Origin: Firmicutes bacterium UBA5509
Lineage (GTDB): Bacteria; Bacillota; Proteinivoracia; UBA4975
Reading direction: 5' to 3'
Length of the DNA: 64,000 bases
Assembly (NCBI GenBank): GCA_002423965.1
Contig: DIOR01000019.1
Location: 41,103-105,102, forward strand
This document shows positions 13,023 to 63,837 of the stretch, in pieces. The stretch's first letter is position 1; each line of letters opens with the position of its first letter. The notes under the pieces are model-generated. The model did not search any database. It was not told the origin of the DNA and saw only the letters and a list, made by a program, of their open reading frames with translations. The translations under genes were made by a program, and so were the position numbers.

Positions 13023-13387
13023 TGGAAAGAAAAGATGACTTTAAAGACCGTCGCAAGCACCTGGACGGACTCAGCGATGAGCAGCTTAACAAACGCTTCT
13101 GGGACTTACTGGACCAGGTGGTAGACCCCTTGGCAGATTTGGCCATGACCCATACTTCACCGGCTATTGAACGCTCAGTCTTATTGAGAATGGGCTTTAG
13201 CAGCCTGGAGGCCAAGTCAATCGTGGAGAAATGCCAGCAGTTTGGCCTTCTGGGCAAAGGTGTCGGCAATGTCGTCCTCAAGGCTTCTGCTATTTCCGGG
13301 CGTCCCTATCGGGAAGCCGGTCTGGAATTGGCCCAAGGCAATCTTTGGTCCCAAGTCGAAGCAGAGTTGGCGGGAGGTGCAAAATAA
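13022..13387 (+). CDS. oraS: D-ornithine 4,5-aminomutase small subunit
   Basis: ERKDDF..RRKHL, RFW.L, THTSPAIERSVLLRMGFSSLEAK, GLLGKGVG. Confidence 0.93.
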   Translation: MERKDDFKDRRKHLDGLSDEQLNKRFWDLLDQVVDPLADLAMTHTSPAIERSVLLRMGFSSLEAKSIVEKCQQFGLLGKGVGNVVLKASAISGRPYREAGLELAQGNLWSQVEAELAGGAK

Positions 13388-44068: not shown

Positions 44069-45298
44069 TTAGTCATTTTTATAAAATAAGACGATGCGGT
44101 TGGTATTAGTGCCACAGTCGTTGTTTCGGATTCCCCATATATTTGCGGTCTTAGTAAATTGTTGGACATTCAGCAAGACCCCTGCACACTGAAACCCTGC
44201 CTTCGTTCCCAGGGGAATTGTATGTTCATCTAGGCAGATTTTGCCCTTTCGCACTTCTCCCACTTCAAAGGCTACCCAACCACCGGGTGTAATTATCCTG
44301 TATAGCTCCACTAATACATCCTGGATGACTTGGCTCCATTCATCAAGAGAACGTGCCATGGTTATTTTTTTGCCAGGTGCCTCAGGGGATATGCCATTAA
44401 ACCAGCAACGCAGCCAGTTGTCATTAGCATACTGGACCACATCCAAAAAGGGGGGAGACGTTACCACCAGTTTAACAGACTCCGAGGAAATTTCCGGTGT
44501 CCACCGGGCATCATCTTCTAGAAATACGGCAGATTCTCCTGCCCTGGCTAGGCTGGCAATCTCATCAGCAGTCAGGGTCCGCACAAGGGAAGCGGATTTC
44601 CGCATTATCCGAGGTGTAATCTCCTTGTACTCCGGCACTTGATTTTTTTGTATATTTATCTGGATCTGCCTCTCCGGCAAAACCGCTTGATTGGGTGGAA
44701 GGGTATACACCGAAAAAAAACCACTGGAATGCCCGCTGAGGCGATTGGTGGCTACCATCCTAATCCATTGGTCCAGATGATCCTCCTTGCCCTGGGCCTC
44801 CCGTTCCAACAGGTACCTGCGCAGGGCGACAATCTCCCCTTCGGTGCGCCGGTGGTAGAACATGGACAAATCTATTTCCCCCCGGCCACCCTCTTCCAAG
44901 GGAATGGCGGCTAGCCGCTCCGCCAGGCTGTCTTTTGTGGGGACGAAAAACCTGGGACGGGCCAGCAAGGCACTTAAGGGATTGACATCATTAGCTGCCA
45001 CCCGTCTGCCCAGCAAGCCGGCCTCGATGACAGTGGTGCCTCTGCCGGAAAAGGGATCGTAGACTAAATCCCCTGGCTCTGTCAGGGCCTCTATAAAGAA
45101 CCGGGGCAGCTGAGGTTTAAAGCAGGCACGGTAGGAAATCTCATGAAGGGATGAGGCCTGCCGCTGCTTGGAGGTCCAAAACTCGTTGCTGAACTGGGGA
45201 ACCTGCCTGCCTTCGATGGCCACACAGTCCACCTTAGTCTTAACCCCAGCCCTATGCTGGTAGTCCTGAACATATCTAGCAAAGGTAGCCACGTCCAC
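44069..45298 (-). CDS. Amino-type (N4-C/N6-A) DNA methyltransferase, apparently orphan
   Basis: Motif I YDPFSGRGTT, motif IV TSPPF; no adjacent endonuclease. Confidence 0.78.
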   Translation of the reverse strand: MDVATFARYVQDYQHRAGVKTKVDCVAIEGRQVPQFSNEFWTSKQRQASSLHEISYRACFKPQLPRFFIEALTEPGDLVYDPFSGRGTTVIEAGLLGRRVAANDVNPLSALLARPRFFVPTKDSLAERLAAIPLEEGGRGEIDLSMFYHRRTEGEIVALRRYLLEREAQGKEDHLDQWIRMVATNRLSGHSSGFFSVYTLPPNQAVLPERQIQINIQKNQVPEYKEITPRIMRKSASLVRTLTADEIASLARAGESAVFLEDDARWTPEISSESVKLVVTSPPFLDVVQYANDNWLRCWFNGISPEAPGKKITMARSLDEWSQVIQDVLVELYRIITPGGWVAFEVGEVRKGKICLDEHTIPLGTKAGFQCAGVLLNVQQFTKTANIWGIRNNDCGTNTNRIVLFYKND

Positions 45299-48263: not shown

Positions 48264-49609
48264 GGATAGCAATTATCGGCACGGGCTACGTGGGTTTGGT
48301 GACAGGGGCCTGCCTGGCTTATATGGGGCATCAGGTGGTTTGTGTAGATAGAGAAGCCAGCATTGTCACTAATATCAACAATATGGAACCCCCAATTTAT
48401 GAACCGGGCTTGGAGGAAATCCTCCAGCAGGTTGTCTCCTCCGGTTTCTTAAGGGCTACCACCGCTATTGGGGCAGCGGTCCAGGGGGCGGAAGTGACCA
48501 TAATTGCCGTAGGCACTCCCCTAGGAGAGGCCGGAATAGACTTGGGGCAGGTAGAGAATGCTGCCAGGGAAATTGGCACTGCCTTAAAAGAAAAGACTGA
48601 GTACCATGTAGTTAGTGTAAAGAGCACAGTAGTGCCCACCACCACAGATACAGTAGTCAAAGGCATACTAGAGCAGTTCTCTGGAAAGTCCCTAGGGGAA
48701 TTTGGCTTGACCATGAATCCGGAGTTCCTTCGAGAAGGAAATGCCATCCCAGACTTTATGTATCCTGATCGCATTGTTATCGGCGCCAATGATGCTAAGA
48801 GCCTAGAGGTCATGAAAAGGGTATATGCAGGCTTTGAGGGGCCAATAGTGGCGACAAATTTAAGGACCGCCGAGATGATAAAATACACCGCCAATGCCCT
48901 CTTGGCTACCTTAATATCTTATGCCAATGAGATTGCCGGTTTTTGCGAGGCCACGGGAGAGGTGGATGTCAAAGATGTCTTTGCTGCCGTGGCTTTGGAT
49001 CAGCGCTTTACTCCCAGGGTGGGCAATAGCATAGTCTATCCCGAGATGCTCAACTACCTCCAGGCAGGATGTGGCTATGGAGGCAGCTGTTTCCCCAAGG
49101 ACCTTCAGGCCCTTCAGGCTTTTGCCAAGGGGAAGGGTTGTTCCCCCCGGCTGGTATCTGCCGCTATTGAAACTAATGAAGAACAAGCAGAGCGGATACT
49201 ACACAGATTGGAAGGGGCAATGGGATCCCTTAAGGGCAAAAAAATAGCCGTCTTAGGTCTGGCCTTTAAGCCGGGGACCGACGATGTTCGTGAATCTCCT
49301 GCCCTCAGGATAATAAAGGGACTGCTGGCCAGGGGGGCAGAGGTTTCTGCCACCGACCCCATCGCCATTGAAAAGATGAAGCAGACCCTTGGTGAGCAGG
49401 GTGTATCCTTTCCCGAAAATTATGAGGCTGCCCTCCAGGGGGCAGAAGGGGTGCTGCTGGTTACTCCCTGGCGGCAGTATGTAGAAATCCCAGGGGAAAA
49501 GTATGTGCAGCTAATGGCATACCCCTTGGTGGTAGACTGCCGCCGGGTTCTGGATAAGGGCCACCTGGAAAGGGTGGGGGCAGACTATATCGGCGTCGGT
49601 TTAGCCTAA
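48260..49609 (+). CDS. ugd: UDP-glucose/GDP-mannose dehydrogenase family
   Basis: IGTGYVG, VGTP, KSTV, NPEFLREG, GYGGSCFPKD, LAFKPGTDDVRESP. Confidence 0.9.
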   Translation: MRIAIIGTGYVGLVTGACLAYMGHQVVCVDREASIVTNINNMEPPIYEPGLEEILQQVVSSGFLRATTAIGAAVQGAEVTIIAVGTPLGEAGIDLGQVENAAREIGTALKEKTEYHVVSVKSTVVPTTTDTVVKGILEQFSGKSLGEFGLTMNPEFLREGNAIPDFMYPDRIVIGANDAKSLEVMKRVYAGFEGPIVATNLRTAEMIKYTANALLATLISYANEIAGFCEATGEVDVKDVFAAVALDQRFTPRVGNSIVYPEMLNYLQAGCGYGGSCFPKDLQALQAFAKGKGCSPRLVSAAIETNEEQAERILHRLEGAMGSLKGKKIAVLGLAFKPGTDDVRESPALRIIKGLLARGAEVSATDPIAIEKMKQTLGEQGVSFPENYEAALQGAEGVLLVTPWRQYVEIPGEKYVQLMAYPLVVDCRRVLDKGHLERVGADYIGVGLA

Positions 49610-49610
49610 A

Positions 49611-50027
49611 ATGAGTTGGATAAATACAGGCCCCAGCTGGGAACTCATCCTGCTCTCGCCCTTTGTAGATTCCCGGGGGTCCTTAAAAAAAGTCCTCCTG
49701 CAGAGTCGGCTGGACTCAGACATCTGTGAGGCCTACCTTCTCTTTACTAATCCAGGAGCCATCCGGGGAAATCATTACCACCGGACTACACTGGAGTATT
49801 TCTTCGTGGTCCAAGGAACTGGGGCAATTGCCCTTCAAGGCCCCGGGGAGGAAGCTCCTAGGGTCATGGAAGTGTCGGCAGAAGATAATCTGCTTTTAAA
49901 AGTCCCTCCCGGAACCGCTCATGCCTTTAAAAATTAAGGGGAGGGGCAGTTAATCATCCTCGCTCTGTCCACCCAAGAGTACAGTAAAGAGGACCCGGAT
50001 ACATTTCCCCTGATTCTTCTCTGCTAA
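49611..50027 (+). pseudogene. Cupin-fold sugar epimerase/isomerase (WxcM/FdtA-like) interrupted by in-frame TAA at 49935-49937
   Basis: DSRG, RGNHYH, PPGTAHAFKN then TAA; same frame continues GEGQLIILALSTQEYSKEDPDTFPLILLC to TAA 50025-50027 just before the next RBS. Confidence 0.75.
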
Positions 50028-50038
50028 AGAAAGGGAGT

Positions 50039-51910
50039 GTGGCTGTGAAACATTTCTACTGCTCTTCATTTAGCAAGGGCTATGCATACAAGGGCTTGCT
50101 TCTCTATGAATCCCTTCTCAAATGGGATAAAGACTTTCACTTCTTTTTCATTTGCTTGCACCCGGAGGTAAAGGAACTCTATAAAAAAATGAACTTAAAA
50201 CACGCAACCCTTATATCCCTGTCTGACCTTGAAGGGCAGGACCCGGAGTTGCTTACGGTAAAGGGCAGCCGCAATGAAAAGGAATATGCCTGGACGGTAA
50301 AAGCCTCAGTAATGCTACACCTATTTAATAATTTCCCCCAGATAGACCACATCGTCTGGCTGGATGGGGATACCTTCTTTTATTCTGACCCCCAACCCAT
50401 CTTTGAGGAATGGGGAAGCCAGTCCATAGTCCTTACCGAGGAAAAATGGAGTGAAGCCAATAAAAAGCGTCGCTATACAAGGGGGATATTTAATACAGGC
50501 TTTATGGGCTTCAAAAGAGATAACCATGCCCTCAACTGTCTCAGTTGGTTCCGGCAAAAACTAATTCAGTGGTGCTATGACCGTCTGGAAGACGGCCTCT
50601 GGAGCGATCAACTCTATGTAAATGACTGGCCCACCAGGTTTCAGGCGGGAATTATTAAAAACCTGGGGGTAAATGTAGGGCCCTGTATTATCCAGGATTG
50701 CTCCCTGACAAAGAAGGGTGAGGATTTCTATGTAAACGGAGAAAAGCTGATCTTTTATCACTCCTACGGATTCAGGTATTTTGACGGCAATGAGTTTGAT
50801 CTCTGCAGCTATATCATGACCTTTAAGGACAATGTAATTCAGTGGATATACCAACCCTATATTGATGCCTGTCGGCAGATAGTGGCCCGGATTCGGCAAG
50901 TAAAAAAAGACTTCTATCCCCAAACAAGACCCCGCCATCAATTTATCCGCAACTATTATAACTTGGCGGCTAATACCGGTGGCTTAGGCCCGGGACCCCA
51001 TATCTGCACCCTCTTTACAAAGGACTACCTAATCCAAGGGCTGGCCCTATATAACTCCCTTAGACAGACTACCCCTGACTTTCATCTCTGGGTCCTTTGC
51101 GTAGATGATGAGGCCTATACCCTTTTGGCAAAAATGCATCTGCCCAAAGTAACCTTAATCAGCCTTGAGAATGTAAAAACGGAAAGATTGGCAGCCCTTG
51201 CTTTGCAAAGGAAAATCAATGAATTTTGCTGGACCCTGAAAGCTAGTTTCGTCATGTACTTACTAAAAAACAATGTCAACCTGGACTCAATACTATACCT
51301 TGATGCCGATCTGTATTTTTTCCGGGATGTCAAAAGCATCCACCGGGAATGGGGAGATAAATCCATATTCTTGACAAAGCTTTGGCTGGGTCCAAAATGG
51401 GCCAAAAAAGTCGGCACATTTTCCGCCGGCCTCATCGGCTTTAAGCGGGACCGGGGCGGGATGAGATGCCTAGCCTCCTGGCGCCGGAAATGCCTGAAAT
51501 GGTGCTCCCAGCGACCAGACCGGGGGCGCTGGGCAGATCAAAAATATCTGGACCGCTGGCCCAGCATCACTGACAGCATCACAATCTCCTCCAACAAAGG
51601 GATTAACACCGGCCCCTGGAATATTCGCAAAGGCACCGTTGTCCAAGAAACAAACCAAGCCTTGACCTTTGAAGACCAACCATTGATCTGCTATCATTTC
51701 AGCGGCTTTGAGCTCATAAGCCAAAACGAAGTTGAGTTATGTAATCGGAAGAGATTGCCGGAACATGCCGAGAAAATATATTCAACTTATCTCCGGGCAA
51801 TTTTCAAAGCAATCCGCCAGGTGAAGGCAGTCGATGCCAGCTTCATGGCAAAGGCGCTACAAGATAAGGACCCGCTGCAGCTAAGAAATTACCGGCGGCT
51901 TCAGGAGTAG
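50039..51910 (+). CDS. Tandem two-domain glycosyltransferase (each half YfnD-like)
   Basis: Halves share EY/FxWTxKAS, DxD (WLDGD, YLDAD), GFKRD, WxDQxY, YH.SG-type motifs. Confidence 0.8.
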   Translation: MAVKHFYCSSFSKGYAYKGLLLYESLLKWDKDFHFFFICLHPEVKELYKKMNLKHATLISLSDLEGQDPELLTVKGSRNEKEYAWTVKASVMLHLFNNFPQIDHIVWLDGDTFFYSDPQPIFEEWGSQSIVLTEEKWSEANKKRRYTRGIFNTGFMGFKRDNHALNCLSWFRQKLIQWCYDRLEDGLWSDQLYVNDWPTRFQAGIIKNLGVNVGPCIIQDCSLTKKGEDFYVNGEKLIFYHSYGFRYFDGNEFDLCSYIMTFKDNVIQWIYQPYIDACRQIVARIRQVKKDFYPQTRPRHQFIRNYYNLAANTGGLGPGPHICTLFTKDYLIQGLALYNSLRQTTPDFHLWVLCVDDEAYTLLAKMHLPKVTLISLENVKTERLAALALQRKINEFCWTLKASFVMYLLKNNVNLDSILYLDADLYFFRDVKSIHREWGDKSIFLTKLWLGPKWAKKVGTFSAGLIGFKRDRGGMRCLASWRRKCLKWCSQRPDRGRWADQKYLDRWPSITDSITISSNKGINTGPWNIRKGTVVQETNQALTFEDQPLICYHFSGFELISQNEVELCNRKRLPEHAEKIYSTYLRAIFKAIRQVKAVDASFMAKALQDKDPLQLRNYRRLQE

Positions 51911-51915
51911 AGGCC

Positions 51916-52668
51916 GTGAAGAGAAAAAAGAGCAAGACCAAACTGGATAAAATCAATGCCCTGCTTACCGACCCATACATCTCCCGCCATGTCCCTGAGA
52001 CCATGGAGTATGAGGAGAAAAACCTCTGGAGGATGCTGCGGAAGCATTCCACTGTGTATGTAAAACCTGTCAAGGGGCATATGGGCCTTGGCATCTTCCG
52101 GGTAAAAAAGTTCTCCGAAGCCAGGTATGAAATAAGTTCCGCCAACTATATCCAACAGGTAAGAGGGACCCAATTAGTGCCGCAAGTTACCGCCCTTGTG
52201 GGAGATAAAGATTACTTCCTGCAGCAGGGAATAGACCTGGCCACTTACAAAAACTGCCCCTTTGACATTCGCATTGTGATGCAAAGGCCATACAAGGTGT
52301 GGCGGCTGACCTTGTCTTCCGCCAAGGTGGCCAACAGGGAAGGCGCCGTCGTCACCAATGTGGCCCAGGGGGCAACGGACTACCCCCTAGATGAAATCCT
52401 CAAGAAGTATGATCAGCGTCGCAATCCCCTATCTACCTTCAGGGAGCTGGTGGATCTCAGTCATCAAATTGCCAGTGTATTGGGTTCTGCATTTTCCATG
52501 AAGATAGTGGGATTGGATCTGGCCCTGGACAAGAAAGGTAGGATATGGTTCTTAGAAGGCAACAACCAGCCTCAATGCGCCCGCTGTAAATTAGTCAACG
52601 ATAAAATGTCCAAGGAGAAATATGAGGAAGCCCGCCGCTGGCTTACAGAAGAAAAGACCCACCAATGA
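51916..52668 (+). CDS. YheC/YheD family ATP-grasp protein
   Basis: VYVKPVKGHMGLGI, LQQGIDL, PFDIRIVMQR, VTNVAQG, GLDLALDKKGRIWFLEGN. Confidence 0.85.
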   Translation: MKRKKSKTKLDKINALLTDPYISRHVPETMEYEEKNLWRMLRKHSTVYVKPVKGHMGLGIFRVKKFSEARYEISSANYIQQVRGTQLVPQVTALVGDKDYFLQQGIDLATYKNCPFDIRIVMQRPYKVWRLTLSSAKVANREGAVVTNVAQGATDYPLDEILKKYDQRRNPLSTFRELVDLSHQIASVLGSAFSMKIVGLDLALDKKGRIWFLEGNNQPQCARCKLVNDKMSKEKYEEARRWLTEEKTHQ

Positions 52669-52680
52669 CAGGTGGGTCTT
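52654..52680. terminator. Hairpin between convergent genes
   Basis: AAGACCCACC-aatgaca-GGTGGGTCTT. Confidence 0.7.
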
Positions 52681-52714
52681 AGTCCTGAATGACGTGGTGA
52701 AGTGAGCCAGACTT

Positions 52715-55700
52715 CTAGTATGGCGGGTTCAGATGTTTAAAGTTCCTGGTCTTCGAAGTGAGGGTTAACAAGGTGAATGAGGCAATTGCCAACAGAGTTG
52801 TTTGTAAAGCAAATACACTGGCCTCAACATAGGCCTTGTCAATAATTAAGTCTTGCAACACTGGCAACGACAGGACAGATATCAGGGCGGTAAAAGTTAC
52901 GATTGCCGCCAATATTTTTGTCGCCCATTTGGCGTGGAATATCGTAAGAATACTTAACAGCAGACACCCCGCAAACAGGAATGTGTTTTCAGGCATGATA
53001 TAGGTATACAGATACACATCTTCAAAAGCCACCAAAGAAATAAATCCCAGCAAGCATACAATGCTTATCCACTTCAGCTTGTTGCGTGGCACAAAGCGGC
53101 GCCACACTTTGTACTTTGTGAATTGCTTTGCAAACCAATTCTTGGGGCCGACTTCTTTCTGGGCCTCTGTATCTTTCAGCTCAACGGCTAGTTCTTTAGA
53201 TATGGTTTCTAATATTTTTAACTCCATGTGACCTGCATTGCCATAGGTGCGGATGTCCTTGAGCCGTTGCTTGGCTAAATCCAGCCAATGTTGTTCCCCG
53301 GGTAAACCTATGGAAAAGGCCGCCTTGAGGAAATTGCTGATCAGGCACGGCATATTTATACCTCCGCCAGAATCAATAATTGGTTGCAAGATAGTCAGGG
53401 CCTCCGAAAACAATCCTTGTTTTAGACAGTCAGTGGCTAAATTTGATGCCGCTATTTCCTCCATGCTATCCAGACCCAAGGCGTCCCTGAATTTACCTTG
53501 AGCAGATTGGGGCTTACCCATCCAGCTGAGGCAATAACCTTGCATTGCCAGGGCATAAGCTTTCTGCTCTGTTTCACTATAACATTCATACAGTCTTTCA
53601 TATGCCTGTAAGGCTGATTGCCACTCCCCCCTATCAGATAATATGTTGCCATACCAGAAAATAACGTTGATATTATCGGGGAAAAGGCTGTAGGCCTTAG
53701 AGATGGTTGCTATGGCCTCATCTCCTTGTCTTGAACGATGAAGGGAAGCAGCCAAGTAGGTATAGATATAATCCTCGGCATTCTCCATGACCACATCAGT
53801 ATTAAGCCAAGTGCTGGCCTCATGGTAGCGGCAATCTTCATAGAGCCAAATTGCCAGTCCAATATAGGCATCTCTTTTTTGCTTAGGGGTCAGGCGTGGG
53901 TCATTGATATGGATTTGCAAGTCCTCAAGCTTATCCAGGTTATATAGAGTCCGCATCAAGCCTGCCAGGGCCTTTTCGGTCCCATCCCTTCTGAAGGATT
54001 GGGCCCATTTTTTTTCTGCCTCCGAAAGATGGGCATGGCGTTCAAAGTGTATGGCCACCTCATTGAGGGATTTAAGATCATCAGAATTAGCCGCCAGATA
54101 GGATTCCAGCAAGACAGCGGCTTCATTTACTTGGCCTACTGCCTCTAAGTAACGGGCATGTACTAATTTGCTATGCAGATACCCTGCCGGCAGCAGTGGA
54201 AGAAAGGAATCGAACTCCTGGACGATGCCCGCATCATCCAAAAAGGAAATCAAGCTATTCCAGTAATATGGATCATCTTTGAATTTCCCGGATATTTGGC
54301 GCAGCATAGTTTTCGCCTCTGCCAGTCTATCGGTTTGGCGGTAAAGGTCTGCCAGGGAGAAGTACACGCCAGGAGGGGGATCAGCGGATTTGAGCAACTC
54401 AGTATAGCTTGTTTCTGCTTCTGTCCACCGTTTCTCACACCTCTGAATCTCCGCCAGGCGATAGCGGGGAAAGACACCGTCAGATTCCAGCCCCAAAGCC
54501 TGATGGTAAAGGACTTTTGCCTGCTCCATTTCCCCTTCCACCTCCCAAAGGGAGCCAAGATAACACAGGAGGTCTTCCGAGGGCCCTAGCTTGAACAAGA
54601 TGCCTTCAATTACCTGCTTGCCCTTTGCAGTGTTCCCTTTCTTGCATAGATCCAGCAATTGATCCAGGGGCCATTGGTATGTGGGGTCAAGCTCAATGGC
54701 TTTCTCCAGGTGGACAAAGGCCTTTTCCTCCTGCCCTGCCCGCTCAAGGATATGTGCGCACTGGGCATGCAAATATGGCGAGTTCGGTTGTTTGCCCAGA
54801 GCAGTTTCGATAGTTTCCTCTGCCTCTTCCGGGCGTCCGGTTTCCAACAAACAGGAAGATATCAATGCCGATACCTTGAGGTCATCCTGTTTTTCCATGG
54901 ATTTCACCAGGTATGTTAGTGCTTCGCTGTAGCGCTCACGCTCAAAAAGAATCCGGCCCAAGCTCCCCAGCAATTCCGGATGCTCTTCGGTCACCGTCAA
55001 CCCGTGTTTTAACCAGTTAATCACTCCCCGAAAATTCCCCAGCATTTCATTAATCCTGGAAAAATACTCGTAGGGCCACGGCCGCTGAGGTTCCAAAGAG
55101 ATAACTTTTCGGAAGCAATCCGCCGCCTCGTCATACTGCAGTTGCTCTAAGTAACAGAGCCCTAGATGTTCCAGTGTCCAACAGTCTTCGGAATCCATGG
55201 CCAGAGCCTTCTTAAAACACTCTTCGGCCTGGGCATATTGCCCCTGTCGGAGGTGGTTTTCGCCAAGATTTGCATATAGCCAATCTCTCCCCGGCTGAAG
55301 TTCCAAGGCCCAATTGAAATATTCTTCCGCCAAAGAAAACTCACCTTGGTTCATCAGGACTTGCCCCAGGATGGCCAGACTTTCCACAGACTCCGGATAA
55401 ACGCGGACGGCCTTTCGGGCAATAGCTAGAGCCTTCTCCAGGTCTTCATCATGAAACAAAGCCAGTCTTGCTTGCAGCAATGTGCCGTACCAACCCAACT
55501 CCCTATCCCTTAAAGTTTTCATGCGGTCAGAAGCTTCGCTTAACAAGCCCCGTCCCAACAGGGAGTTGATGACCCTGAGGCGGAAGAATTCCAGATACTG
55601 AGGCGCATCCCAAAGTTGTTCAACAGCCAGGCGAAAATCTGCTTCCTCCACCTGCGGGGGCCTGCAATCTATAAGAAATTGCGAGTAATATATTTTCCCT

Positions 55701-57148
55701 TGCTGGCAGGCCACCATCTGAGCCACGATTTCCTCAGCCCCACTGTAGTCATTAGCAGCATATAAGTGTATGGAATGTGCCAACAGTCGCAGCCGGGGCT
55801 CATCCCAGGCTTGCAAAACAGAGAGCCTGTACTTTTCCTCGGCTGAGACAAAGGCAACGGCCTCATAAAAGGAATTTGCGAACATCTCATCATATTGGAG
55901 GTAAGGCAGGGGCAAAGGAAATGGGCTGCCTGGATCTTGCAGGAAGAAGGCTTGCAAGGCATCATCAAAACCATTAATTACTGTTACATGGGCACCCGCT
56001 GCACCGCGCAAAGACATCAGGAGAGGGATGCGGTTACGCAAAGCTGTCTTAACCTGCTCCTGATTCGCCCTGAAGGACACAAAGCTATAACCCTGTGCGT
56101 TCAGCCAAGTGTACAAGTTGTGCATGGGGGTCCCCTCAGCGTCCATCATTCCTTGTCCTATTTCCCACTGATCAACTGAGATTCCATAGTAATCCAGGAT
56201 TATCGACACTGCACAAGGTACGCAGTGATTATGCCGCTGAATCTGCGGATTCAATGTCAGGGACACTCTATCCCAGGGCACATCGATGTTCCAGGTACTG
56301 AGATTTGGCACGAAGCTTTTTTCTCCGGGAGCTAAACTCTTGGAAAAGGTTTCTTTAGCCCCGCTCCAATCCTCTCTACGGTATGCGTTTATCCCTTGTA
56401 ACCAATTCAGGGCAGGAATAAATTCTGCTTCAGGACTAAGCTCCATGATCTTGGCTATAGAATCTTCAAAGGCATCATTTTCACCCAGCAACCACTGGAT
56501 AGTGGCGAAGTAATAAAGGATTTGAGGAGACTGAGGGGATTGTTGCAGGCCGGCAGATAGCCACTGTGCAGCTCCCACCCAATCCTGTTCTAGGGTTTTT
56601 AGGGAAGCCATCATCGGGTAAGTGTTTTCCCGCCCTGGATCCGCCAAGATCGCCTTCTGAAAGCAGGCTGCGCTTTCAGGGATTCGCTCCTGCAGAAGCA
56701 GGTAATACCCCTCCTCATTCAGCACTTCATCCGGTCCCAGTGTTTCTTTCGCCCGCTGGAGACACCGTTCTGCTGAAGTAAAGAGGCGCATTTGAGAAAA
56801 GAGCACGCTTTTTTGGCGCAATACTTTCCCCCGTTCCTGGTCATCTGCAACCAATTGAGCTGCACGCTCTAACAGGCTTTTCGCATCAACCAGCCTCTTG
56901 GCGGACTGGTAGGCATTGGCTAAGCCACAGAGCATCTCTACATTATCTGGGTATTTATACGTCCCCCACCGCCATAAAGACCTCTCCAGGCGGGTGTTTC
57001 CCGCCTGCCAGGCAATTTTCGCCAGTAAGGCTGCCTGCATGGGATCTTGCTTCAGCAAGGATTTTACCTCTTTTAATGCCAGGAAGCAGCAGGCATATCT
57101 CTTGTCTTCAAAATTTCGTTTCAGAGCTGCGAAATCATAGGGTTGCAT
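52715..57148 (-). CDS. 1477-aa TPR-repeat protein with internal C39-like cysteine peptidase domain and C-terminal TM helices
   Basis: QRHNHCVPC (Cys309), AHVTVINGFD (His387), QDP (Asp405); many TPR-like repeats on both sides; ~4 hydrophobic segments at the C-terminus. Confidence 0.85.
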   Translation of the reverse strand: MQPYDFAALKRNFEDKRYACCFLALKEVKSLLKQDPMQAALLAKIAWQAGNTRLERSLWRWGTYKYPDNVEMLCGLANAYQSAKRLVDAKSLLERAAQLVADDQERGKVLRQKSVLFSQMRLFTSAERCLQRAKETLGPDEVLNEEGYYLLLQERIPESAACFQKAILADPGRENTYPMMASLKTLEQDWVGAAQWLSAGLQQSPQSPQILYYFATIQWLLGENDAFEDSIAKIMELSPEAEFIPALNWLQGINAYRREDWSGAKETFSKSLAPGEKSFVPNLSTWNIDVPWDRVSLTLNPQIQRHNHCVPCAVSIILDYYGISVDQWEIGQGMMDAEGTPMHNLYTWLNAQGYSFVSFRANQEQVKTALRNRIPLLMSLRGAAGAHVTVINGFDDALQAFFLQDPGSPFPLPLPYLQYDEMFANSFYEAVAFVSAEEKYRLSVLQAWDEPRLRLLAHSIHLYAANDYSGAEEIVAQMVACQQGKIYYSQFLIDCRPPQVEEADFRLAVEQLWDAPQYLEFFRLRVINSLLGRGLLSEASDRMKTLRDRELGWYGTLLQARLALFHDEDLEKALAIARKAVRVYPESVESLAILGQVLMNQGEFSLAEEYFNWALELQPGRDWLYANLGENHLRQGQYAQAEECFKKALAMDSEDCWTLEHLGLCYLEQLQYDEAADCFRKVISLEPQRPWPYEYFSRINEMLGNFRGVINWLKHGLTVTEEHPELLGSLGRILFERERYSEALTYLVKSMEKQDDLKVSALISSCLLETGRPEEAEETIETALGKQPNSPYLHAQCAHILERAGQEEKAFVHLEKAIELDPTYQWPLDQLLDLCKKGNTAKGKQVIEGILFKLGPSEDLLCYLGSLWEVEGEMEQAKVLYHQALGLESDGVFPRYRLAEIQRCEKRWTEAETSYTELLKSADPPPGVYFSLADLYRQTDRLAEAKTMLRQISGKFKDDPYYWNSLISFLDDAGIVQEFDSFLPLLPAGYLHSKLVHARYLEAVGQVNEAAVLLESYLAANSDDLKSLNEVAIHFERHAHLSEAEKKWAQSFRRDGTEKALAGLMRTLYNLDKLEDLQIHINDPRLTPKQKRDAYIGLAIWLYEDCRYHEASTWLNTDVVMENAEDYIYTYLAASLHRSRQGDEAIATISKAYSLFPDNINVIFWYGNILSDRGEWQSALQAYERLYECYSETEQKAYALAMQGYCLSWMGKPQSAQGKFRDALGLDSMEEIAASNLATDCLKQGLFSEALTILQPIIDSGGGINMPCLISNFLKAAFSIGLPGEQHWLDLAKQRLKDIRTYGNAGHMELKILETISKELAVELKDTEAQKEVGPKNWFAKQFTKYKVWRRFVPRNKLKWISIVCLLGFISLVAFEDVYLYTYIMPENTFLFAGCLLLSILTIFHAKWATKILAAIVTFTALISVLSLPVLQDLIIDKAYVEASVFALQTTLLAIASFTLLTLTSKTRNFKHLNPPY

Positions 57149-57429
57149 AGTATCCCACCTAACATTCAGCTATAAAATACTATTCTGCGTAAGAACCCTA
57201 TTTCCTTCCACATATGACAAGTCCCTCCCCTAAAACAAGCGAAAAAAACCACGGAGCATTACGCCGTGGAATAGCTAGTACGTCTAATTTAATTTCTCAC
57301 TAAGGATAGCTTTCACAGCCAAATTAATTTTCTACACCCCAAGCAACAATCAATTAAAGCTAAATAAATTGAAATAGGGGGCCTTCTGAGGGTTATCCCT
57401 CATAAGGCCCTTTATACAATCAAAATAAC

Positions 57430-58083
57430 TTATTTGTGGATTTCCCAGACAAAGGTGGCAGAGTCGTTGAGATCAATATCGTCTGGTACAAAGTCGATTG
57501 ATTTTGCTGCCAGTATGGGTGGCGCTTCATTGAGGACGAAATTTGTTTTAGAAACGACACTAATCTCACCCCAGCTATAATTTATAGACATTAGGTCTCC
57601 CAAAGTCACACCGGAGGCCTCACATAATATTTGAGCTTTACTCCGGGCATTGTCGGCGGCAGATTTCAGCAGCTCGTCCTTTATCTCATTGGGATCCTTT
57701 ATCGTGAAATCCACAGATAAATGAGGTTCAGCCAGACACTGGGCAATAGCAGATAAAGCACTGGCCAAGCGTTTGGTATCAAAATCAAACTCCAGCTTCA
57801 AGCGGTGATTGACCACGTAACCCCTAAAAACATTCTTGTAATTGCCATACTTATCCTTGACATTATCGTATTTTGTTCCAACGTTAAAACTAGTGGTCTT
57901 GATGGAGCTTTTTTCGAACCCCACGCCAACCAAGCTTTCATCTAGCTGGGCAATCTTATCTGTGGCAATATCTATTGCCTTTTCGTATTGTTTATCTATT
58001 GCTTCCAGCCCCATCGTAAGCACTACATAATCCGGCTTAGCAGATATCTTCCCTTTTCCGGTAACAGTAATAGCTTTGTTCAC
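57430..58083 (-). CDS. SIMPL (DUF541) domain protein
   Basis: ITVTGKGKISAKPD, IKTTSFNV, A..NARSKA..L..ASGV.LG; no signal peptide. Confidence 0.82.
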   Translation of the reverse strand: MNKAITVTGKGKISAKPDYVVLTMGLEAIDKQYEKAIDIATDKIAQLDESLVGVGFEKSSIKTTSFNVGTKYDNVKDKYGNYKNVFRGYVVNHRLKLEFDFDTKRLASALSAIAQCLAEPHLSVDFTIKDPNEIKDELLKSAADNARSKAQILCEASGVTLGDLMSINYSWGEISVVSKTNFVLNEAPPILAAKSIDFVPDDIDLNDSATFVWEIHK

Positions 58084-58171
58084 AATATCCTCCTGTCTTG
58101 TCTTTCCTAAGAACGACTGTTCATAACTTAGATTAATTGTACTATGTCTTCCCCAGATTGTACCAAATTCC

Positions 58172-58813
58172 TTAGCGGTTTACCAGGATTAGTAGGATGC
58201 AGGTAATGACGACGAATAGTGAGGTTATTAATACACCAAAATTAAAGAAGGCTTTCTTATCATTTGTCTCCCGTTCAGGGGCCAAGTTGCTCTTCCGGAG
58301 GACAGTAACCACCGGCTTATATAGCAACATGGTTAGGGCAGAGTTAAGAGTACTCTTTAACAGGTTAAAGGGCAAGAAAATGGTCGGCAGCATTTTTACT
58401 ACTTCCTCTCGGGCTATTCCCATGTACACCGGGGTTACAATGTAATTCCAAAGCAGCATCGAAGCTGTCATTGCCAGGCTACCTAGGATAAGGCCGATTA
58501 CTGCCCCTGTTAGGGTGCGCTTGCGCTTATAGACAAAGGCGGCTATGCAGGCAAAGGCACAGGTAGATATTACATTCATTAGAAGACCGATAACACCTGT
58601 ATCACTGACAGTTACCATCTCTACCAAGGACACAACCAAAGAAACGAGGAAGGCAGATAACGGACCAAAGATAAAGCCGCCAATGGTGATAATTACATCC
58701 TTGGGATCTAATTTTAAAAATAAAAATACGGGGATTCGCCCAAAGACCATTACCACGTAGGCAATAGCACTTAGCATTGCCAGGGTGACATATTTTTTAG
58801 TATTAGTTCGCAT
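58172..58813 (-). CDS. ribU: ECF transporter S component, riboflavin-specific by riboswitch context
   Basis: LAMLSAIAY, LKLDP.D, GFIFGP, PFNLLK; FMN riboswitch directly upstream; start ATG 58813 after GGGAGGGG. Confidence 0.78.
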   Translation of the reverse strand: MRTNTKKYVTLAMLSAIAYVVMVFGRIPVFLFLKLDPKDVIITIGGFIFGPLSAFLVSLVVSLVEMVTVSDTGVIGLLMNVISTCAFACIAAFVYKRKRTLTGAVIGLILGSLAMTASMLLWNYIVTPVYMGIAREEVVKMLPTIFLPFNLLKSTLNSALTMLLYKPVVTVLRKSNLAPERETNDKKAFFNFGVLITSLFVVITCILLILVNR

Positions 58814-58837
58814 AAAAACCCCTCCCAAAATTAATAA

Positions 58838-58864
58838 CACCTGAAAGACAGTGCCTTTCAGGTG
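58838..58864 (-). terminator. Riboswitch expression-platform terminator
   Basis: Minus strand CACCTGAAAG-gcactgt-CTTTCAGGTG followed by TTATTAATTTT. Confidence 0.7.
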
Positions 58865-58886
58865 AATATCAAGCGGAACCAACCTT

Positions 58887-58996
58887 GCCTTCTTTCATCC
58901 AGACTATACTGTCGGTTTTTGGAATTTCACCAAATCAGCACTTGCGCGCTCGCGGACTATACCGCCGGTCGGGAATTTCACCCTGCCCTGAAGACA
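58887..58996 (-). ncRNA. FMN riboswitch (RFN element)
   Basis: Minus strand GTCTTCAGGGCAGGGTGAAATTCCCGACCGGCGGTATAGTCCGCGAG...GATTTGGTGAAATTCCAAAAACCGACAGTATAGTCTGGATGAAAGAAGGC. Confidence 0.95.
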
Positions 58997-59018
58997 CCAG
59001 TATTTAGTTGTCAGTGAT

Positions 59019-59046
59019 ATTATAGCACTGCTACCCAAAAAAACAA
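59019..59046 (-). promoter_or_regulatory. Extended -10 sigma-A promoter for FMN riboswitch-ribU
   Basis: Minus strand TTGTTT...TGcTATAAT ~20 nt upstream of the aptamer. Confidence 0.65.
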
Positions 59047-59330
59047 TAGGGAGAGATTAAGGTATATTTACCGGGAAATATGTTGGTTAGCCCCGAAAAA
59101 AGTATTCCTGTCATTGGAATTTTGTAGAATAAGGGTTGGACAGGGAAAAAAGGCATCGTTATAGAAGATTAGTGGTGAAATGCATGCCTCATAAGCCAGC
59201 ATAATTACCAATAAATTTTGGTCAATCGGAGATTTTTACTCATTCGGTTAATCAATCTTCGGTTTCAGTAATATATAGCTCCTATCCAGGCTTCTCCTAG
59301 AACACGGAAATAGAAAGAAAGGGTGGTAAC

Positions 59331-61268
59331 ATGCTGATATTAAACCAGGAGCAAAAGAAAATAGTTGAAGATACTGAAGGGGTTAAGCTGGTAGTATCCG
59401 GACCCGGCACTGGCAAGACAACAACTGTTACCCACTTTCTTGCCAATCTTTTGGCCACAGGCAAAAAACCTGACGAAATCCTGGCTGTTACATTTACCGT
59501 AAAAGCTGCCCGAGAAATGAAAGAACGGGTTCGAGTCTTGACTAGCGTATGGCCTGATGTCTCTACCATTCATAGTTTCGCTCGGAGTGTGCTATGCATC
59601 TTTCCCCCCAAGGGGTTCACTGCAGACTTTTCAATAATTGATGAGAAGTTCCAATGGAGGTTAATCGAACGACTGCTTGCCAAAGCAAAACTAAGTATGC
59701 ACCCCCAGGAGGTCAAAGAACTTTTAACTCTGGCTCGCAATACCCGGGACAATAGAATTCTCGAGAAAAGAAAACTTAGCGGTCTATACAATGAGTATAT
59801 GCAGGAACTAAGGTCCAATAACTCTATGGATTTTGATGCCCTCCAGACTTGGGCTGCATGGACCTTTGAGAACAATCCTGATGCCTTAGAATTATACAGG
59901 GATAAGTACTACTACATACTCATAGATGAATTCCAGGATACATCCCAAATTCAGTATGCATTATTGCGACCATTGGTCGCCAACAACCTCCTCTGTGTCG
60001 GAGACTTTGACCAGAGCATTTATGGCTTCCGGGGTGCAGATGTCAACCTGATTCTAAACTTAAAAAATGATTACCCTGACCTCACTACTCATTTTTTGAA
60101 GGAGAATTATCGCTCCACAAAGACAATAGTTAAGGCAGCTAATGCGCTTATTGTTAATAATAAAAAGCGCCAACAAAAACCTCATTTCACCAACAGGCCG
60201 GAAGGGAAGGGGATAATCTGCAAACCCTGTGCCGACCCAAGTACTGAGGCTGAGTATATTGCAAGAGAGATTCAAGATTCAGTCCAGGATGGGGATGCCA
60301 GGTGGGCAAGTTTTGCCGTTCTTTACCGAAACAATATCTTAAGTGTTCCGATTGCTAAGGCGTTATCAAAAAGGAAAATTCCCTTCCAGATCATAGGGGA
60401 TAAAGATTTCTTTGATCTTCCCGAAATAAAAAACATCCTTTGTTTTTTTAGGCTGCTTGCCCAGCCTGATGACCAAGAATCTAAAGGGGATGCAATTTCG
60501 GTGTTAAACAATTTGGGAGTAAGAGCTTCCCGGGCTGAACTTCCTTCCCTTCTTAAACATCTGGATTTTCAAGGAGATTTGGTAGGCATCTATAACGCCA
60601 TTTTAGAGCAAACCGGCATGATGAAGGAATTAGAACGGAATACTAGCCAGTCTGGACTTAATGCTCTTGAGAACGTAAAAGAACTAGAAAATATTTTGAT
60701 TGATATGGAAAACAAAAACCTAGAAGCTTTTCTTTATGATATTGAGGAAACCCGCTCCAGCGATAAAAAAGATGCTGTCAATTTGCTTACCATTCACAAA
60801 GCAAAGGGGCTGGAGTTTGAGACAGTGTTTATTTGCGCCCTGGATGACGATACACTTCCAAACTATAAAAGCCAAAACAGAGAGGCTATTGAAGAAGAAA
60901 GACGTTTATTGTATGTGGCCTTAACAAGGGCAAAAAATCGTCTTTACTTAACCTATCCCAGAAAAAAGACAGTAAAGAAGGCAAAGATTCGATTGTCCCC
61001 TTCCCGGTTTATGCGGGAACTGGAACTCGAGGTGAAGTCTAATCCTTCTGTAACGGTTACGGGAAATATAAGCGCGGCATTCCGAGGCCGCCCTGATTAC
61101 CGAGCGGAGGCAGAGGCCAGTCGCAAAGAAAACCCACAGGGACCGTGGGTGGATAGCACTGGCAACCGCTGGGGTATATGCAAGCGTTGTTCGGAGTTTA
61201 CCCGTTACTGGCGGAGTTTGGACGGAGACACAAATATGTGTGAATGTAATGATTGCCGGGATAAATAG
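59331..61268 (+). CDS. UvrD/Rep/PcrA-like SF1 helicase with Cys-rich C-terminal extension
   Basis: SGPGTGKT, IDEFQD, GDFDQSIYGFRGA, NYRS, TIHKAKGLEF, EERRLLYVALTRAK; tail WGICKRC...CECNDC. Confidence 0.9.
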   Translation: MLILNQEQKKIVEDTEGVKLVVSGPGTGKTTTVTHFLANLLATGKKPDEILAVTFTVKAAREMKERVRVLTSVWPDVSTIHSFARSVLCIFPPKGFTADFSIIDEKFQWRLIERLLAKAKLSMHPQEVKELLTLARNTRDNRILEKRKLSGLYNEYMQELRSNNSMDFDALQTWAAWTFENNPDALELYRDKYYYILIDEFQDTSQIQYALLRPLVANNLLCVGDFDQSIYGFRGADVNLILNLKNDYPDLTTHFLKENYRSTKTIVKAANALIVNNKKRQQKPHFTNRPEGKGIICKPCADPSTEAEYIAREIQDSVQDGDARWASFAVLYRNNILSVPIAKALSKRKIPFQIIGDKDFFDLPEIKNILCFFRLLAQPDDQESKGDAISVLNNLGVRASRAELPSLLKHLDFQGDLVGIYNAILEQTGMMKELERNTSQSGLNALENVKELENILIDMENKNLEAFLYDIEETRSSDKKDAVNLLTIHKAKGLEFETVFICALDDDTLPNYKSQNREAIEEERRLLYVALTRAKNRLYLTYPRKKTVKKAKIRLSPSRFMRELELEVKSNPSVTVTGNISAAFRGRPDYRAEAEASRKENPQGPWVDSTGNRWGICKRCSEFTRYWRSLDGDTNMCECNDCRDK

Positions 61269-61476: not shown

Positions 61477-63837
61477 ATGCGCAATTCCTTCACCGGACGG
61501 GAAGACCACCTGATCCGCTATCTATATGACTGTATTGAACGGGCTGAAAGAATCCGGTTTATTGTTGCTTTCCTGATGGAATCAGGTGCCAAACTACTGG
61601 GTTCACAATTAGCAGATGCTGCCAACAGGGGTATACCTATTCAAATCTTAACAGGTAGGTACATGTCCATAACAGAACCGTCGGCCATTTACCATCTTTA
61701 TAATGTTCTGGGAAGTGACGTGGAAGTACGTTTCTTCAGCGACAATGTCCGCTCCTTCCATCCCAAGGCCTATCTCTTTGATTATAAAGATGACAGCGAA
61801 ATAATTATTGGCTCATCAAATATCTCTTATAGCGCCCTGACCTCTGGGGTGGAGTGGAACTACCGCCTCCGCAGGAGCTTGTCCCCGTTAGACTATGATA
61901 TGTTCGCCAACACCTTCGATGAACTGTTTAGTGGCCATTCTGTTCCGGCAACGGATGAAGAGCTCAAGAAATACTCCTTCTCATGGCGCAAGCCGAGATT
62001 GGGGGTCCTGAAGTCCACCCAAGAGCAGCCCCATATCCCAGAACCAACAGGAGCACAGATTGAAGCGCTCTACCAGCTAAGAAAAGCTCGGGAAGAGGGC
62101 ATCAATAAGGGCCTGGTAGTAGCTGCCACCGGCGTGGGCAAGACCTATCTCAGTGCATTCGACTCCCAAGAATATAAAAAGATCTTGTATGTCGCCCATC
62201 GGGAGGAAATCCTGCGCCAAGCCGCAGCTACTTTCGCCACTGTGCGCCCAAAAGCAAAAATAGGATTCTATTTCGGTCAGCAAAAGGACAATAATGCAGA
62301 CATTCTATTCGCGACAGTGCAGACTCTGGCCCGGGAGCCCCACCTGCATAATTTCTCTCCAGACTCCTTTGCTTACGTTATAGTGGACGAGTTCCACCAT
62401 GCGGCAGCAGACAGCTACGTCAAGGTAATTAACTATTTTAAACCGCAATTTCTATTGGGACTAACGGCTACCCCCTTCCGCACAGATAACAAAGACATTT
62501 TCGCCCTCTGCGGGGATAATGTCATTTACGAGATATACCTGAAGGATGCAATCCACAGAGATCTATTGGTTCCCTTCAGGTATTTCGGTATATACGATGC
62601 CGAAACAGATTACAGTCAAATCGAAACCCGCAATGGCCAGTATGTGGTGGAGCAATTGGAGAAGGAACTGTCCCGTAAGGAAAGGGCAGATCTGGTTCTG
62701 GAAAAATACCGCTCGATGGCCGGGCGAAGGACTCTAGGCTTCTGTGTCAGTATTGACCACGCCGAGTACATGGCGCAGCACTTTGCAACTAACGGTATCA
62801 AGGCGGTAGCGGTGCATAGCGGCGTTACCACTGAGTTTTCCCAGGACAGAAAACTGGCCGTGCCCGCCCTGAAGCAAGGAGAGCTGGAAGTAATATTTGC
62901 AGTGGACATCTTCAATGAAGGGGTGGACATCCCGTCCCTGGACACAGTCATGTTCCTGCGACCCACGGAGTCATTTATTGTCTTTCTGCAGCAGTTGGGC
63001 AGGGGGCTTAGGAAGTATCCAGATAAGGAATACCTGACAGTCTTAGATTTTATCGGGAACTATAAGCGCGCCCATTATATCCCCGCCCTTCTAGCAGGGG
63101 AAAACCCTCTGCGGGAAACTTCGGCGACATATAAGCCCTATAACAAGGATTACCCGGATGGCTGCTATGTCCAATTTGATTTCCGACTTCTGGACCTGTT
63201 CCGGGAGATGGCCAAGTCTGACCCTCTGCCCAAGAGGATGAGGGATGAGTACCAAAGGATTAAGGAAGATTTGGGCCGGCGCCCCACCCGGATAGACATG
63301 TACTACCGCTCAGATATTCCTATCAGAGAGTATCTAACAGAAGGATGGCTATCTTGGCTGGACAAGATGGATGAGCTAACACAGGAGGAACTTTCCTGGC
63401 TAGGCACCCCTGTAGAGGAATTTCTCATTGATATCGAGAAGACCAGCATGAGCAAGGCTTATAAGATGCCCACCATCGGCTCTTTGCTAAATAATGATGG
63501 AATCAGCAAGGGAGTTAGTTTGGAAACCATCGGACAGAATTTCATGGATTTCTATGTCAACACGCCCTCGCATCAGAAGGACCTTAGAGACAAGAGCAAC
63601 AGGAACTGGCGCAGTTGGGATGTCGGCAAATTTACCAGCCTAGCCAGGAAAAACCCGGTACACTTCTTGTCCAAGAGCCGCAAGTTCTTTCACTATGATG
63701 AGATTAACAGAGTCTTTTACCTGGACGATGGCCTGGACCAATTCTTAACCCCTGCCCTGGCGCAACATGTAAGGGACATTTTGGACTATAAAACCACTCA
63801 TTATTTTAGGAGGAGATTCTGGGAGGAGGACGACTGA
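61477..63837 (+). CDS. PLD-nuclease / SF2 (ResIII-type) helicase fusion
   Basis: FHPKAY...IIGSSN PLD motif; ATGVGKT, DEFHH, GLTATP, FNEGVDIP, QQLGRGLR; unassigned C-terminal ~200 aa. Confidence 0.88.
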   Translation: MRNSFTGREDHLIRYLYDCIERAERIRFIVAFLMESGAKLLGSQLADAANRGIPIQILTGRYMSITEPSAIYHLYNVLGSDVEVRFFSDNVRSFHPKAYLFDYKDDSEIIIGSSNISYSALTSGVEWNYRLRRSLSPLDYDMFANTFDELFSGHSVPATDEELKKYSFSWRKPRLGVLKSTQEQPHIPEPTGAQIEALYQLRKAREEGINKGLVVAATGVGKTYLSAFDSQEYKKILYVAHREEILRQAAATFATVRPKAKIGFYFGQQKDNNADILFATVQTLAREPHLHNFSPDSFAYVIVDEFHHAAADSYVKVINYFKPQFLLGLTATPFRTDNKDIFALCGDNVIYEIYLKDAIHRDLLVPFRYFGIYDAETDYSQIETRNGQYVVEQLEKELSRKERADLVLEKYRSMAGRRTLGFCVSIDHAEYMAQHFATNGIKAVAVHSGVTTEFSQDRKLAVPALKQGELEVIFAVDIFNEGVDIPSLDTVMFLRPTESFIVFLQQLGRGLRKYPDKEYLTVLDFIGNYKRAHYIPALLAGENPLRETSATYKPYNKDYPDGCYVQFDFRLLDLFREMAKSDPLPKRMRDEYQRIKEDLGRRPTRIDMYYRSDIPIREYLTEGWLSWLDKMDELTQEELSWLGTPVEEFLIDIEKTSMSKAYKMPTIGSLLNNDGISKGVSLETIGQNFMDFYVNTPSHQKDLRDKSNRNWRSWDVGKFTSLARKNPVHFLSKSRKFFHYDEINRVFYLDDGLDQFLTPALAQHVRDILDYKTTHYFRRRFWEEDD

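Follow-up and report, generated by a model that had tools for sequence, protein, structure and literature searches.

A giant tetratricopeptide repeat protein of an uncultured Bacillota bacterium encloses a C39-like cysteine peptidase domain and belongs to a widespread family

We describe here a single large gene within a 64,000-nucleotide stretch of the genome of Firmicutes bacterium UBA5509 (contig DIOR01000019.1, positions 41,103 to 105,102; the whole stretch is hereafter called the window). Its product is a 1477-amino acid (aa) protein in which a cysteine peptidase-like domain is set between two regions of tetratricopeptide repeats (TPRs). This giant protein clearly belongs to the C39-like superfamily, as judged by hidden Markov model (HMM) match, active-site residues and fold. 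Both of its domain types are known; the giant TPR-C39-TPR architecture is widespread and, as far as full-text searches show, undescribed, and the copy in the window is an ordinary family member with an added membrane anchor. We favor, with a probability of roughly 55%, the reading that it is an active, cytoplasmic C39-like cysteine hydrolase embedded in a long, client-recruiting TPR solenoid, and that in the clade of the window this enzyme is tethered to the membrane.

Protease domain

The Pfam family PF13529 (Peptidase_C39_2) matches aa 304-406 of the giant protein with an E-value of 5.5e-9 and a score of 37.2 bits (cutoff 24); PF03412 (Peptidase_C39) also scores above its cutoff (24.4 bits versus 22). 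An earlier reading of the DNA, made without database searches and referred to here as the original prediction, had named Cys309, His387 and Asp405 as the catalytic residues together with a Gln to which it gave no position. The three residues are indeed found at these positions in the translation, and the oxyanion-hole Gln can be identified as Q304, five residues ahead of the Cys; conservation does not extend to Q302. When 106 full-length members were aligned with MAFFT, these four catalytic residues (Table 1) formed the most conserved columns of the entire protein. Beyond them, strong conservation is seen only at TPR-type Ala, Gly and Pro columns, and no conserved Gly-Gly (GG) site was seen in this alignment outside the protease domain.

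The fold agrees with the profile. An AlphaFold2 (AF2) model of aa 290-450, built with a 37-sequence family alignment, reached a mean predicted local distance difference test (pLDDT) score of 96.4 and a predicted template modeling (pTM) score of 0.91. When this model was compared with the Protein Data Bank (PDB) by Foldseek, the matches listed, all at probability 1.00, included a putative C39-like peptidase of B. anthracis (3erv; query TM-score, TMq, 0.72), the peptidase domain of PCAT1 (TMq 0.71, root-mean-square deviation (rmsd) 2.4 Å), and the peptidase domain of ComA and the LahT-type double-glycine protease 6mpz (TMq 0.69 each), with the C39 set as a whole spanning 0.67-0.72. The papain-like toxin 9l5u and the isopeptidase PeiR were also returned. 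At the sequence level, a PDB search with the single domain sequence gave no matches and the family profile was needed; the profile retrieves PeiR (8e-9), 3erv (7.5e-8) and ComA (8e-8). A complete catalytic set, together with the profile and fold matches, identifies a genuine C39-like domain of clan CA.

These data bear on whether the domain is active at all. Inactive C39-like domains do exist, and HlyB 3zua and 7sgr are among the structural matches, so the giant protein could be imagined as a catalytically dead scaffold, a TPR adaptor with a degenerate module like the C39-like domain of HlyB. We regard this as highly improbable, as all four catalytic residues are present, are 99-100% conserved across the full-length relatives, and occupy the top-conserved columns.

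They also bear on the chemistry. The small PF13529 proteins 3erv and PeiR (8z4h) represent the best Pfam family and the best PDB sequence and structure matches of the giant protein; they differ from it in being only ~230 aa long, and the PeiR entry is a pseudomurein (cell-wall) endoisopeptidase, whereas the giant protein lacks a signal peptide, faces the cytoplasm by prediction and carries ~1300 aa of repeats. With the TPRs serving as a scaffold, the Cys/His/Asp site of this fold could instead cut or form an isopeptide, gamma-glutamyl, thioester or acyl linkage, or could have a substrate other than protein. This alternative, which we place on the unlikely side, draws on the rank of PeiR in the profile search, on lower Foldseek matches to the phytochelatin-synthase-like Alr0975 and to deubiquitinase-type folds, and on a C39-like archaeal protein that is reported to have glycosidase activity (PMC13642728). 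Convergent to the giant gene, both here and in a relative from a metagenome-assembled genome (MAG), is moreover a YheC/D ATP-grasp gene, whose class makes amide bonds. Structural matches to true double-glycine peptidases are nevertheless equal or better, C39 peptidases have the same oxyanion Gln and D-P motif, and more distant relatives lack the ATP-grasp neighbor at their loci.

Domain anatomy and topology

The original prediction laid the protein out as about 290 aa of TPRs, the C39-like domain, some 900 aa of further TPRs, and about four C-terminal transmembrane (TM) helices. Most of this layout stands: the PF13529 domain is followed by a TPR array of ~880 aa, in which a dozen Pfam TPR families match between aa ~556 and 1255, and a hydropathy scan places four hydrophobic segments at aa ~1359-1465. 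The N-terminal ~290 aa are modeled as helical hairpins, and family members align in this region at TPR-type Ala/Gly positions, but it is only weakly TPR-like, with weak Pfam ARM_TT21/TPR-type matches at aa 66-126 and 175-270. The giant protein also has a weak match to PF20308 (TPR-S). An AF2 model of aa 1-1200, for which a 4-sequence alignment was used, shows a continuous array of helical hairpins with pLDDT values of 70-90 for aa ~500-1190, 55-82 for aa 141-260, and low values for aa 1-140.

The stretch before the first TM helix (KYKVWRRFVPRNKLKW), the loop between the second and third helices, and the C-terminal tail are basic, and the other two loops are acidic. This pattern fits an N-in/C-in topology that would leave the TPR-protease body in the cytoplasm. 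The original prediction also stated that the protein has no signal peptide, no ATP-binding cassette (ABC) transporter domain and no adjacent bacteriocin. All three statements agree with our results: the N-terminus is hydrophilic and thus offers no signal peptide, a Pfam scan of the protein found no ABC-transporter domain, and the 280-bp gap upstream of the gene contains no plausible open reading frame (ORF) for a small peptide or GG leader.

The topology and the solved folds raise the question of whether the giant protein might be a stand-alone double-glycine leader peptidase that matures a bacteriocin, a ribosomally synthesized and post-translationally modified peptide (RiPP) or a signaling peptide encoded elsewhere in the genome. 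Its domain shares with the C39 domains of ComA, PCAT1 and LahT150, the leader-peptide peptidases that are its closest solved folds, the papain-like fold (TM about 0.7, rmsd 2.4-3.1), the Gln/Cys/His/Asp arrangement and a cytoplasmic location, the last by prediction. It differs from them in sequence (14-20% identity), in lacking an ABC fusion and an adjacent GG-leader peptide, and in being set between two long TPR arrays of a much larger protein. Neither ABC domains nor a small precursor ORF nearby were found that would place it with the PCAT/AMS proteins, and no biosynthetic genes were seen in the seven loci examined (the window and six relatives). A leader peptidase would also leave ~1300 aa of TPR without explanation, and we consider this alternative distinctly unlikely.

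Table 1. Features of the giant-protein gene and its surroundings, in positions of the window; residue numbers refer to the giant protein.
Feature	Position	Strand	Evidence or remark
Whole ORF	52715..57148	-	1477 aa + stop codon; ATG start
Ribosome-binding site AGGTGGG	57154..57160	-	5 nt before ATG; read from sequence
GC-rich hairpin + T-run, CCACGG-N8-CCGTGG-T7	57242..57269	-	~95 nt upstream of giant-gene start
N-terminal helical, TPR-like region, aa 1-290	56279..57148	-	Weak Pfam ARM_TT21/TPR matches; AF2 helical hairpins
C39-like papain-fold cysteine peptidase domain, aa 291-450 (Pfam core aa 304-406)	55799..56278	-	PF13529, AF2, Foldseek, profile search
Codon of Q304, predicted oxyanion-hole Gln	56237..56239	-	146/149 domain matches; 99% of 106 full-length members
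Codon of C309, predicted catalytic nucleophile, motif N-H-C-V-P	56222..56224	-	146/149 domain matches; 100% of 106 full-length members
Codon of H387, predicted catalytic His	55988..55990	-	146/149 domain matches; 100% of 106 full-length members
Codon of D405, predicted third triad member, D-P motif	55934..55936	-	140/149 domain matches; 100% of 106 full-length members
Linker + long TPR array, aa 451-1330 (~880 aa)	53159..55798	-	Many Pfam TPR families; AF2 hairpins
Four predicted TM helices, aa ~1359-1378, 1390-1407, 1410-1432, 1444-1465	52751..53083	-	Kyte-Doolittle scan
Terminator-like hairpin	52654..52680	.	Between giant gene and convergent YheC/D ATP-grasp gene
ECF-type S component (PF12822 + PF07155)	58172-58882	-	Pfam
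Flavin mononucleotide (FMN) riboswitch RF00050	58883-58999	-	113.6 bits; directly upstream of S component
UvrD-type helicase	59331-61268	+	Strong PADLOC matches to GajB and DRT-helicase models
PLD-nuclease + ResIII/Helicase_C protein	61477-63837	+	Type IV methyl-directed restriction enzyme models, E 1e-101
Type II DNA methyltransferase-like protein	44069-45298	-	PADLOC MTase_II, E 1e-141; ~8 kb downstream of giant gene
MBL-fold hydrolase	43115-44020	-	Adjoins methyltransferase
Ornithine fermentation genes: OrtB, D-ornithine 4,5-aminomutase OraE, PrdR-like sigma-54 regulator	6142-7779, 11619-13022, 13231-15573	+	OrtB 817 bits; OraE 1340 bits

A widespread family with a clade-specific anchor

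An exhaustive HMMER search, with aa 290-470 as the query and 1.84 billion cluster representatives as the database, recovered 631 relatives of the C39-like domain at E<=1e-3, 53 of them at E<=1e-10. Proteins of 1200-1750 aa make up most of the best 150; they share the architecture of the giant protein, their C39-like domain lying at aa ~260-470. The TPR-C39-TPR layout occurs among the best 150 in more than 100 clusters (50% identity) from Bacillota, Proteobacteria and Myxococcota. PF13529 was present in 33 of 33 sampled members and TPR_19 in 31, and no other catalytic domain recurred. Only the exhaustive search revealed this family. A word-indexed search with the whole protein gave four full-length relatives at 65-82% identity, all metagenomic, and otherwise TPR noise; with the domain alone it gave three fragments, and with the family profile two. 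A scan of GTDB species genomes returned one MAG, its search patterns having been drawn from close relatives and being too specific.

Named members include Symbiobacterium terraclitae, Sutcliffiella tianshenii, Planococcus shenhongbingii, Ectobacillus panaciterrae, Peribacillus alkalitolerans, Priestia koreensis, Anaerobacillus alkaliphilus, Neobacillus cucumis and Microbulbifer aggregans, along with one Sandaracinaceae MAG, one Desulfobacteraceae MAG and a 1400-aa copy in Bacillus sp. N5-665. At least seven NCBI-accessioned variants, all labeled Priestia koreensis and all 1392 aa long, fall in one cluster of at least 90% identity, which looks like a conserved gene of the species and not like a patchy defense gene.

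In the databases, members are named only “tetratricopeptide repeat protein,” “CDC27 family protein” or “C39 family peptidase.” The original prediction had called the gene a strong candidate for an undescribed system. This is upheld insofar as a full-text literature search found no publication describing the TPR-C39-TPR giant architecture; the protein is, however, no isolated oddity but one of a large, multi-phylum family already present in RefSeq under generic names. PA2778-family cysteine peptidases (NCBIfam NF033920) likewise combine a C39-like peptidase with TPRs, but the giant protein scores 83.8 bits against a cutoff of 150, aligns best along a stretch that takes in no more than the TPR part of the 255-position model, and differs in size and domain order.

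The membrane anchor, which the original prediction had taken as part of the design, does not hold for the family. TM helices are present in the close relatives P0002-P0004 and P0022, which belong to the clade of the window, and Symbiobacterium-type members have one or two, whereas Bacillaceae- and Planococcus-type members, and indeed most of the family, lack C-terminal TM helices. Since TM helices are limited to the clades of the window and of Symbiobacterium-like members, the anchor is a feature of these clades.

Two side observations concern individual members. The same C39-like domain occurs in a second architecture (P0073, P0077, P0101, P0113, P0119 and P0164), in which proteins of ~925 aa start with a hydrophobic segment at the N-terminus, followed by the domain at aa ~380-540 and then by five or six TM helices. 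In P0025 (1473 aa), the last ~250 residues are rich in Arg, Pro, Ala and Trp, are unlike the homologs, and read like frameshifted high-GC sequence in the source assembly.

Transcription unit

The original prediction that the gene stands alone is borne out by its flanks. Past the stop codon there is a terminator-like hairpin, and on the upstream side two hairpins set the gene apart from the neighboring SIMPL gene; the giant gene is thus its own, monocistronic transcription unit. Its strong ribosome-binding site, AGGTGGG, is invariant across two homologous loci that were aligned. The GC-rich upstream hairpin (57242..57269) is retained, with changed stem bases, in the related loci L001 and L004, and may be either the terminator of upstream transcription, from a lost or decayed gene, or a leader element. 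In L001 and L006 the upstream hairpin comes after a 102-aa ORF that the window lacks. No convincing sporulation-type promoter motifs were seen upstream of the giant gene on inspection by eye.

Metatranscriptome contigs of two runs (X4 and X8), the sources being food fermentation and mud, span nearly the whole gene at a depth similar to that of its neighbors (window 49000-60000), which suggests that the giant gene is transcribed in situ.

Genomic neighborhood

In the window, the giant gene is preceded by a SIMPL/DUF541 protein gene and then by an energy-coupling factor (ECF)-type S component, which is a RibU-like riboflavin transporter because an FMN riboswitch precedes its gene. Downstream and convergent lies a cluster of nucleotide-sugar and glycosyltransferase genes with the YheC/D ATP-grasp gene at its end. 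Both flanks are kept in the MAG relative L006 (65% identity), where the YheC/D gene is likewise convergent. Elsewhere the surroundings differ. The Bacillus sp. N5-665 copy sits between the genes for ArgRS and IleRS, the Symbiobacterium copy is next to gerPA-like genes and MscL, the P0022 locus contains FAD oxidoreductases and a GntR regulator, and the copies of Ectobacillus, Planococcus and Peribacillus lie among other, differing housekeeping genes; an aldehyde dehydrogenase is a further example of such ordinary neighbors.

No partner gene is shared across the seven loci. A conserved upstream partner ORF was considered and rejected, as the small ORFs just upstream in six loci have no homology to one another. 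Likewise, a link to sporulation was not adopted. It had been raised by the gerPA-like genes of Symbiobacterium and by SpoVS-type families near the Ectobacillus and Peribacillus copies, and it was dropped because Planococcus is not known to form spores and because Microbulbifer, Desulfobacteraceae and Sandaracinaceae have members of the family too.

As a side observation on the host, the ornithine fermentation genes elsewhere in the window (Table 1) indicate an amino-acid-fermenting anaerobe. The organism, an uncultured member of the Bacillota, recurs in fermentation, landfill, compost and sludge metagenomes.

Relation to anti-phage defense

The original prediction, reasoning from TPR-caspase systems, proposed a ligand-gated protease of bacterial immunity or signaling. 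In its defensive form, the giant protein would be an anti-phage or abortive-infection sensor whose TPR arrays detect a phage product and release the C39 protease onto host or phage proteins. The repeat-array-plus-protease layout does resemble, by analogy, the TPR-caspase (CHAT) immune proteases, and the weak TPR-S match noted above points the same way. Defense-like genes are also present in the window: a restriction-like phospholipase D (PLD)-helicase gene and a UvrD/GajB-like helicase gene, which may together form a small defense locus, lie 2-4 kb upstream of the giant gene, and a type II methyltransferase gene, beside which a metallo-beta-lactamase (MBL)-fold hydrolase is encoded, lies downstream. 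No restriction partner was identified for the methyltransferase.

The giant protein itself gives a different picture. In PADLOC-DB v2 it matches only TPR models, PDC-M16B and PDC-M71B, with E-values of 2e-6 or weaker and always on TPR stretches, so that this search, which the original prediction had suggested, returned generic TPR matches and no defense-specific model. The comparison of neighborhoods at the seven loci, suggested along with it, found ordinary genes and neither a conserved effector nor any other conserved partner; the six relatives sit among housekeeping genes, and no defense-like neighbors such as those of the window were seen beside them. In the window itself, the riboflavin-transporter unit and the SIMPL gene, each with its own signals, separate the restriction-like genes from the giant gene. 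A phage collection contained no copy of the giant protein, and a PHROG search gave no meaningful match. The plasmid collection PLSDB yielded a single full-architecture match (L007, NZ_CP093325.1, Bacillus sp. N5-665 “plasmid p1”), which is almost certainly a chromosome filed as a plasmid, given its 5.5 Mb, its tRNA-synthetase genes and its 25 annotated features; there is thus no true plasmid copy in that collection. Together with the retention of the protein in Priestia koreensis at constant length, these results provide no positive evidence for the immunity or ligand-gated sensor claim, and we judge a phage sensor to be unlikely.

Proposed function and comparison with known systems

We propose that the giant protein is a C39-like (papain-fold, clan CA) hydrolase built into a TPR solenoid, and that its four C-terminal helices would tether it to the membrane on the cytoplasmic side. 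TPR arrays are modules through which proteins dock to one another, and the two arrays here may bind one or a few protein clients, or else a regulatory partner, and present them to the catalytic cleft. The cut that follows would be limited and site-specific, probably after small residues as in other C39 peptidases. Enzymes of this group typically cut after Gly-Gly, also in folded cytosolic proteins such as GyrB (bioRxiv 10.64898/2026.05.07.723447). Docking by TPRs combined with a limited, specific cut would suit a constitutive processing or regulatory protease of the cell rather than a mobile defense module. In the clade of the window, the tether would localize this activity, and in most relatives the same task would fall to a soluble protein.

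Five points weigh against this proposal. Peptide-bond specificity is assumed from the fold, and the best PDB sequence match is an isopeptidase. The type IV restriction-like gene and the UvrD/GajB-like helicase gene stand close upstream in the window and leave some room for a defense context at this particular locus. The AF2 model of aa 1-1200 has pLDDT <50 for aa 269-488 and is therefore unreliable around the protease, where recruitment by the TPRs would have to be told from occlusion. The RNA evidence consists of assembled contigs, in which DNA carry-over is possible. Finally, the literature search gave nothing on the architecture.

A bolder version of the proposal, possible but doubtful in our view, is that the family would be a hitherto unrecognized class of TPR-gated giant cytoplasmic switch proteases, a bacterial counterpart of separase-like or sensor proteases, in which binding of a partner or ligand on the TPR solenoid would control a C39 site that cleaves specific cellular or invader proteins, in this clade at the membrane. 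The TPR-CHAT/TPR-caspase immune proteases and eukaryotic separase offer an analogy, as they too couple a long helical-repeat array to a cysteine protease; in these systems, the array docks the substrate or regulator. These proteases are caspase-like enzymes of clan CD, however, and the immune versions come with partner genes such as CRISPR effectors, whereas the giant protein is a clan CA C39 member in which Pfam, PADLOC and fold searches found no CHAT or caspase domain, and it has no partner gene.

A TPR scaffold that directs proteolysis at the membrane is an idea also familiar from membrane-anchored TPR adaptors of the cytoplasm such as LapB/YciM and from the TPR-protease BepA, and the giant protein has TPR matches to the LapB and BepA models. 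These matches are confined to the TPRs and fall far below the cutoffs; LapB has no protease domain, and BepA is a periplasmic M48 metalloprotease.

Significance

The value of these observations lies at the level of the family and not in the window's copy, where no system-level evidence was found. To our knowledge, C39 peptidases are known almost only as processors of leader peptides in ABC exporters, as small wall-acting enzymes and, recently, as toxins. The toxins cut GyrB and ParE (bioRxiv 10.64898/2026.05.07.723447). The family described here places a strictly conserved active site in the middle of a ~1400-aa TPR solenoid, recurs across phyla, and consists of members that are unstudied and generically annotated. 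Cultivable members include Priestia, Neobacillus and Peribacillus, and finding the client of the protease would reveal a new pathway of proteolysis inside the cell in bacteria that are common in soil and fermentations.

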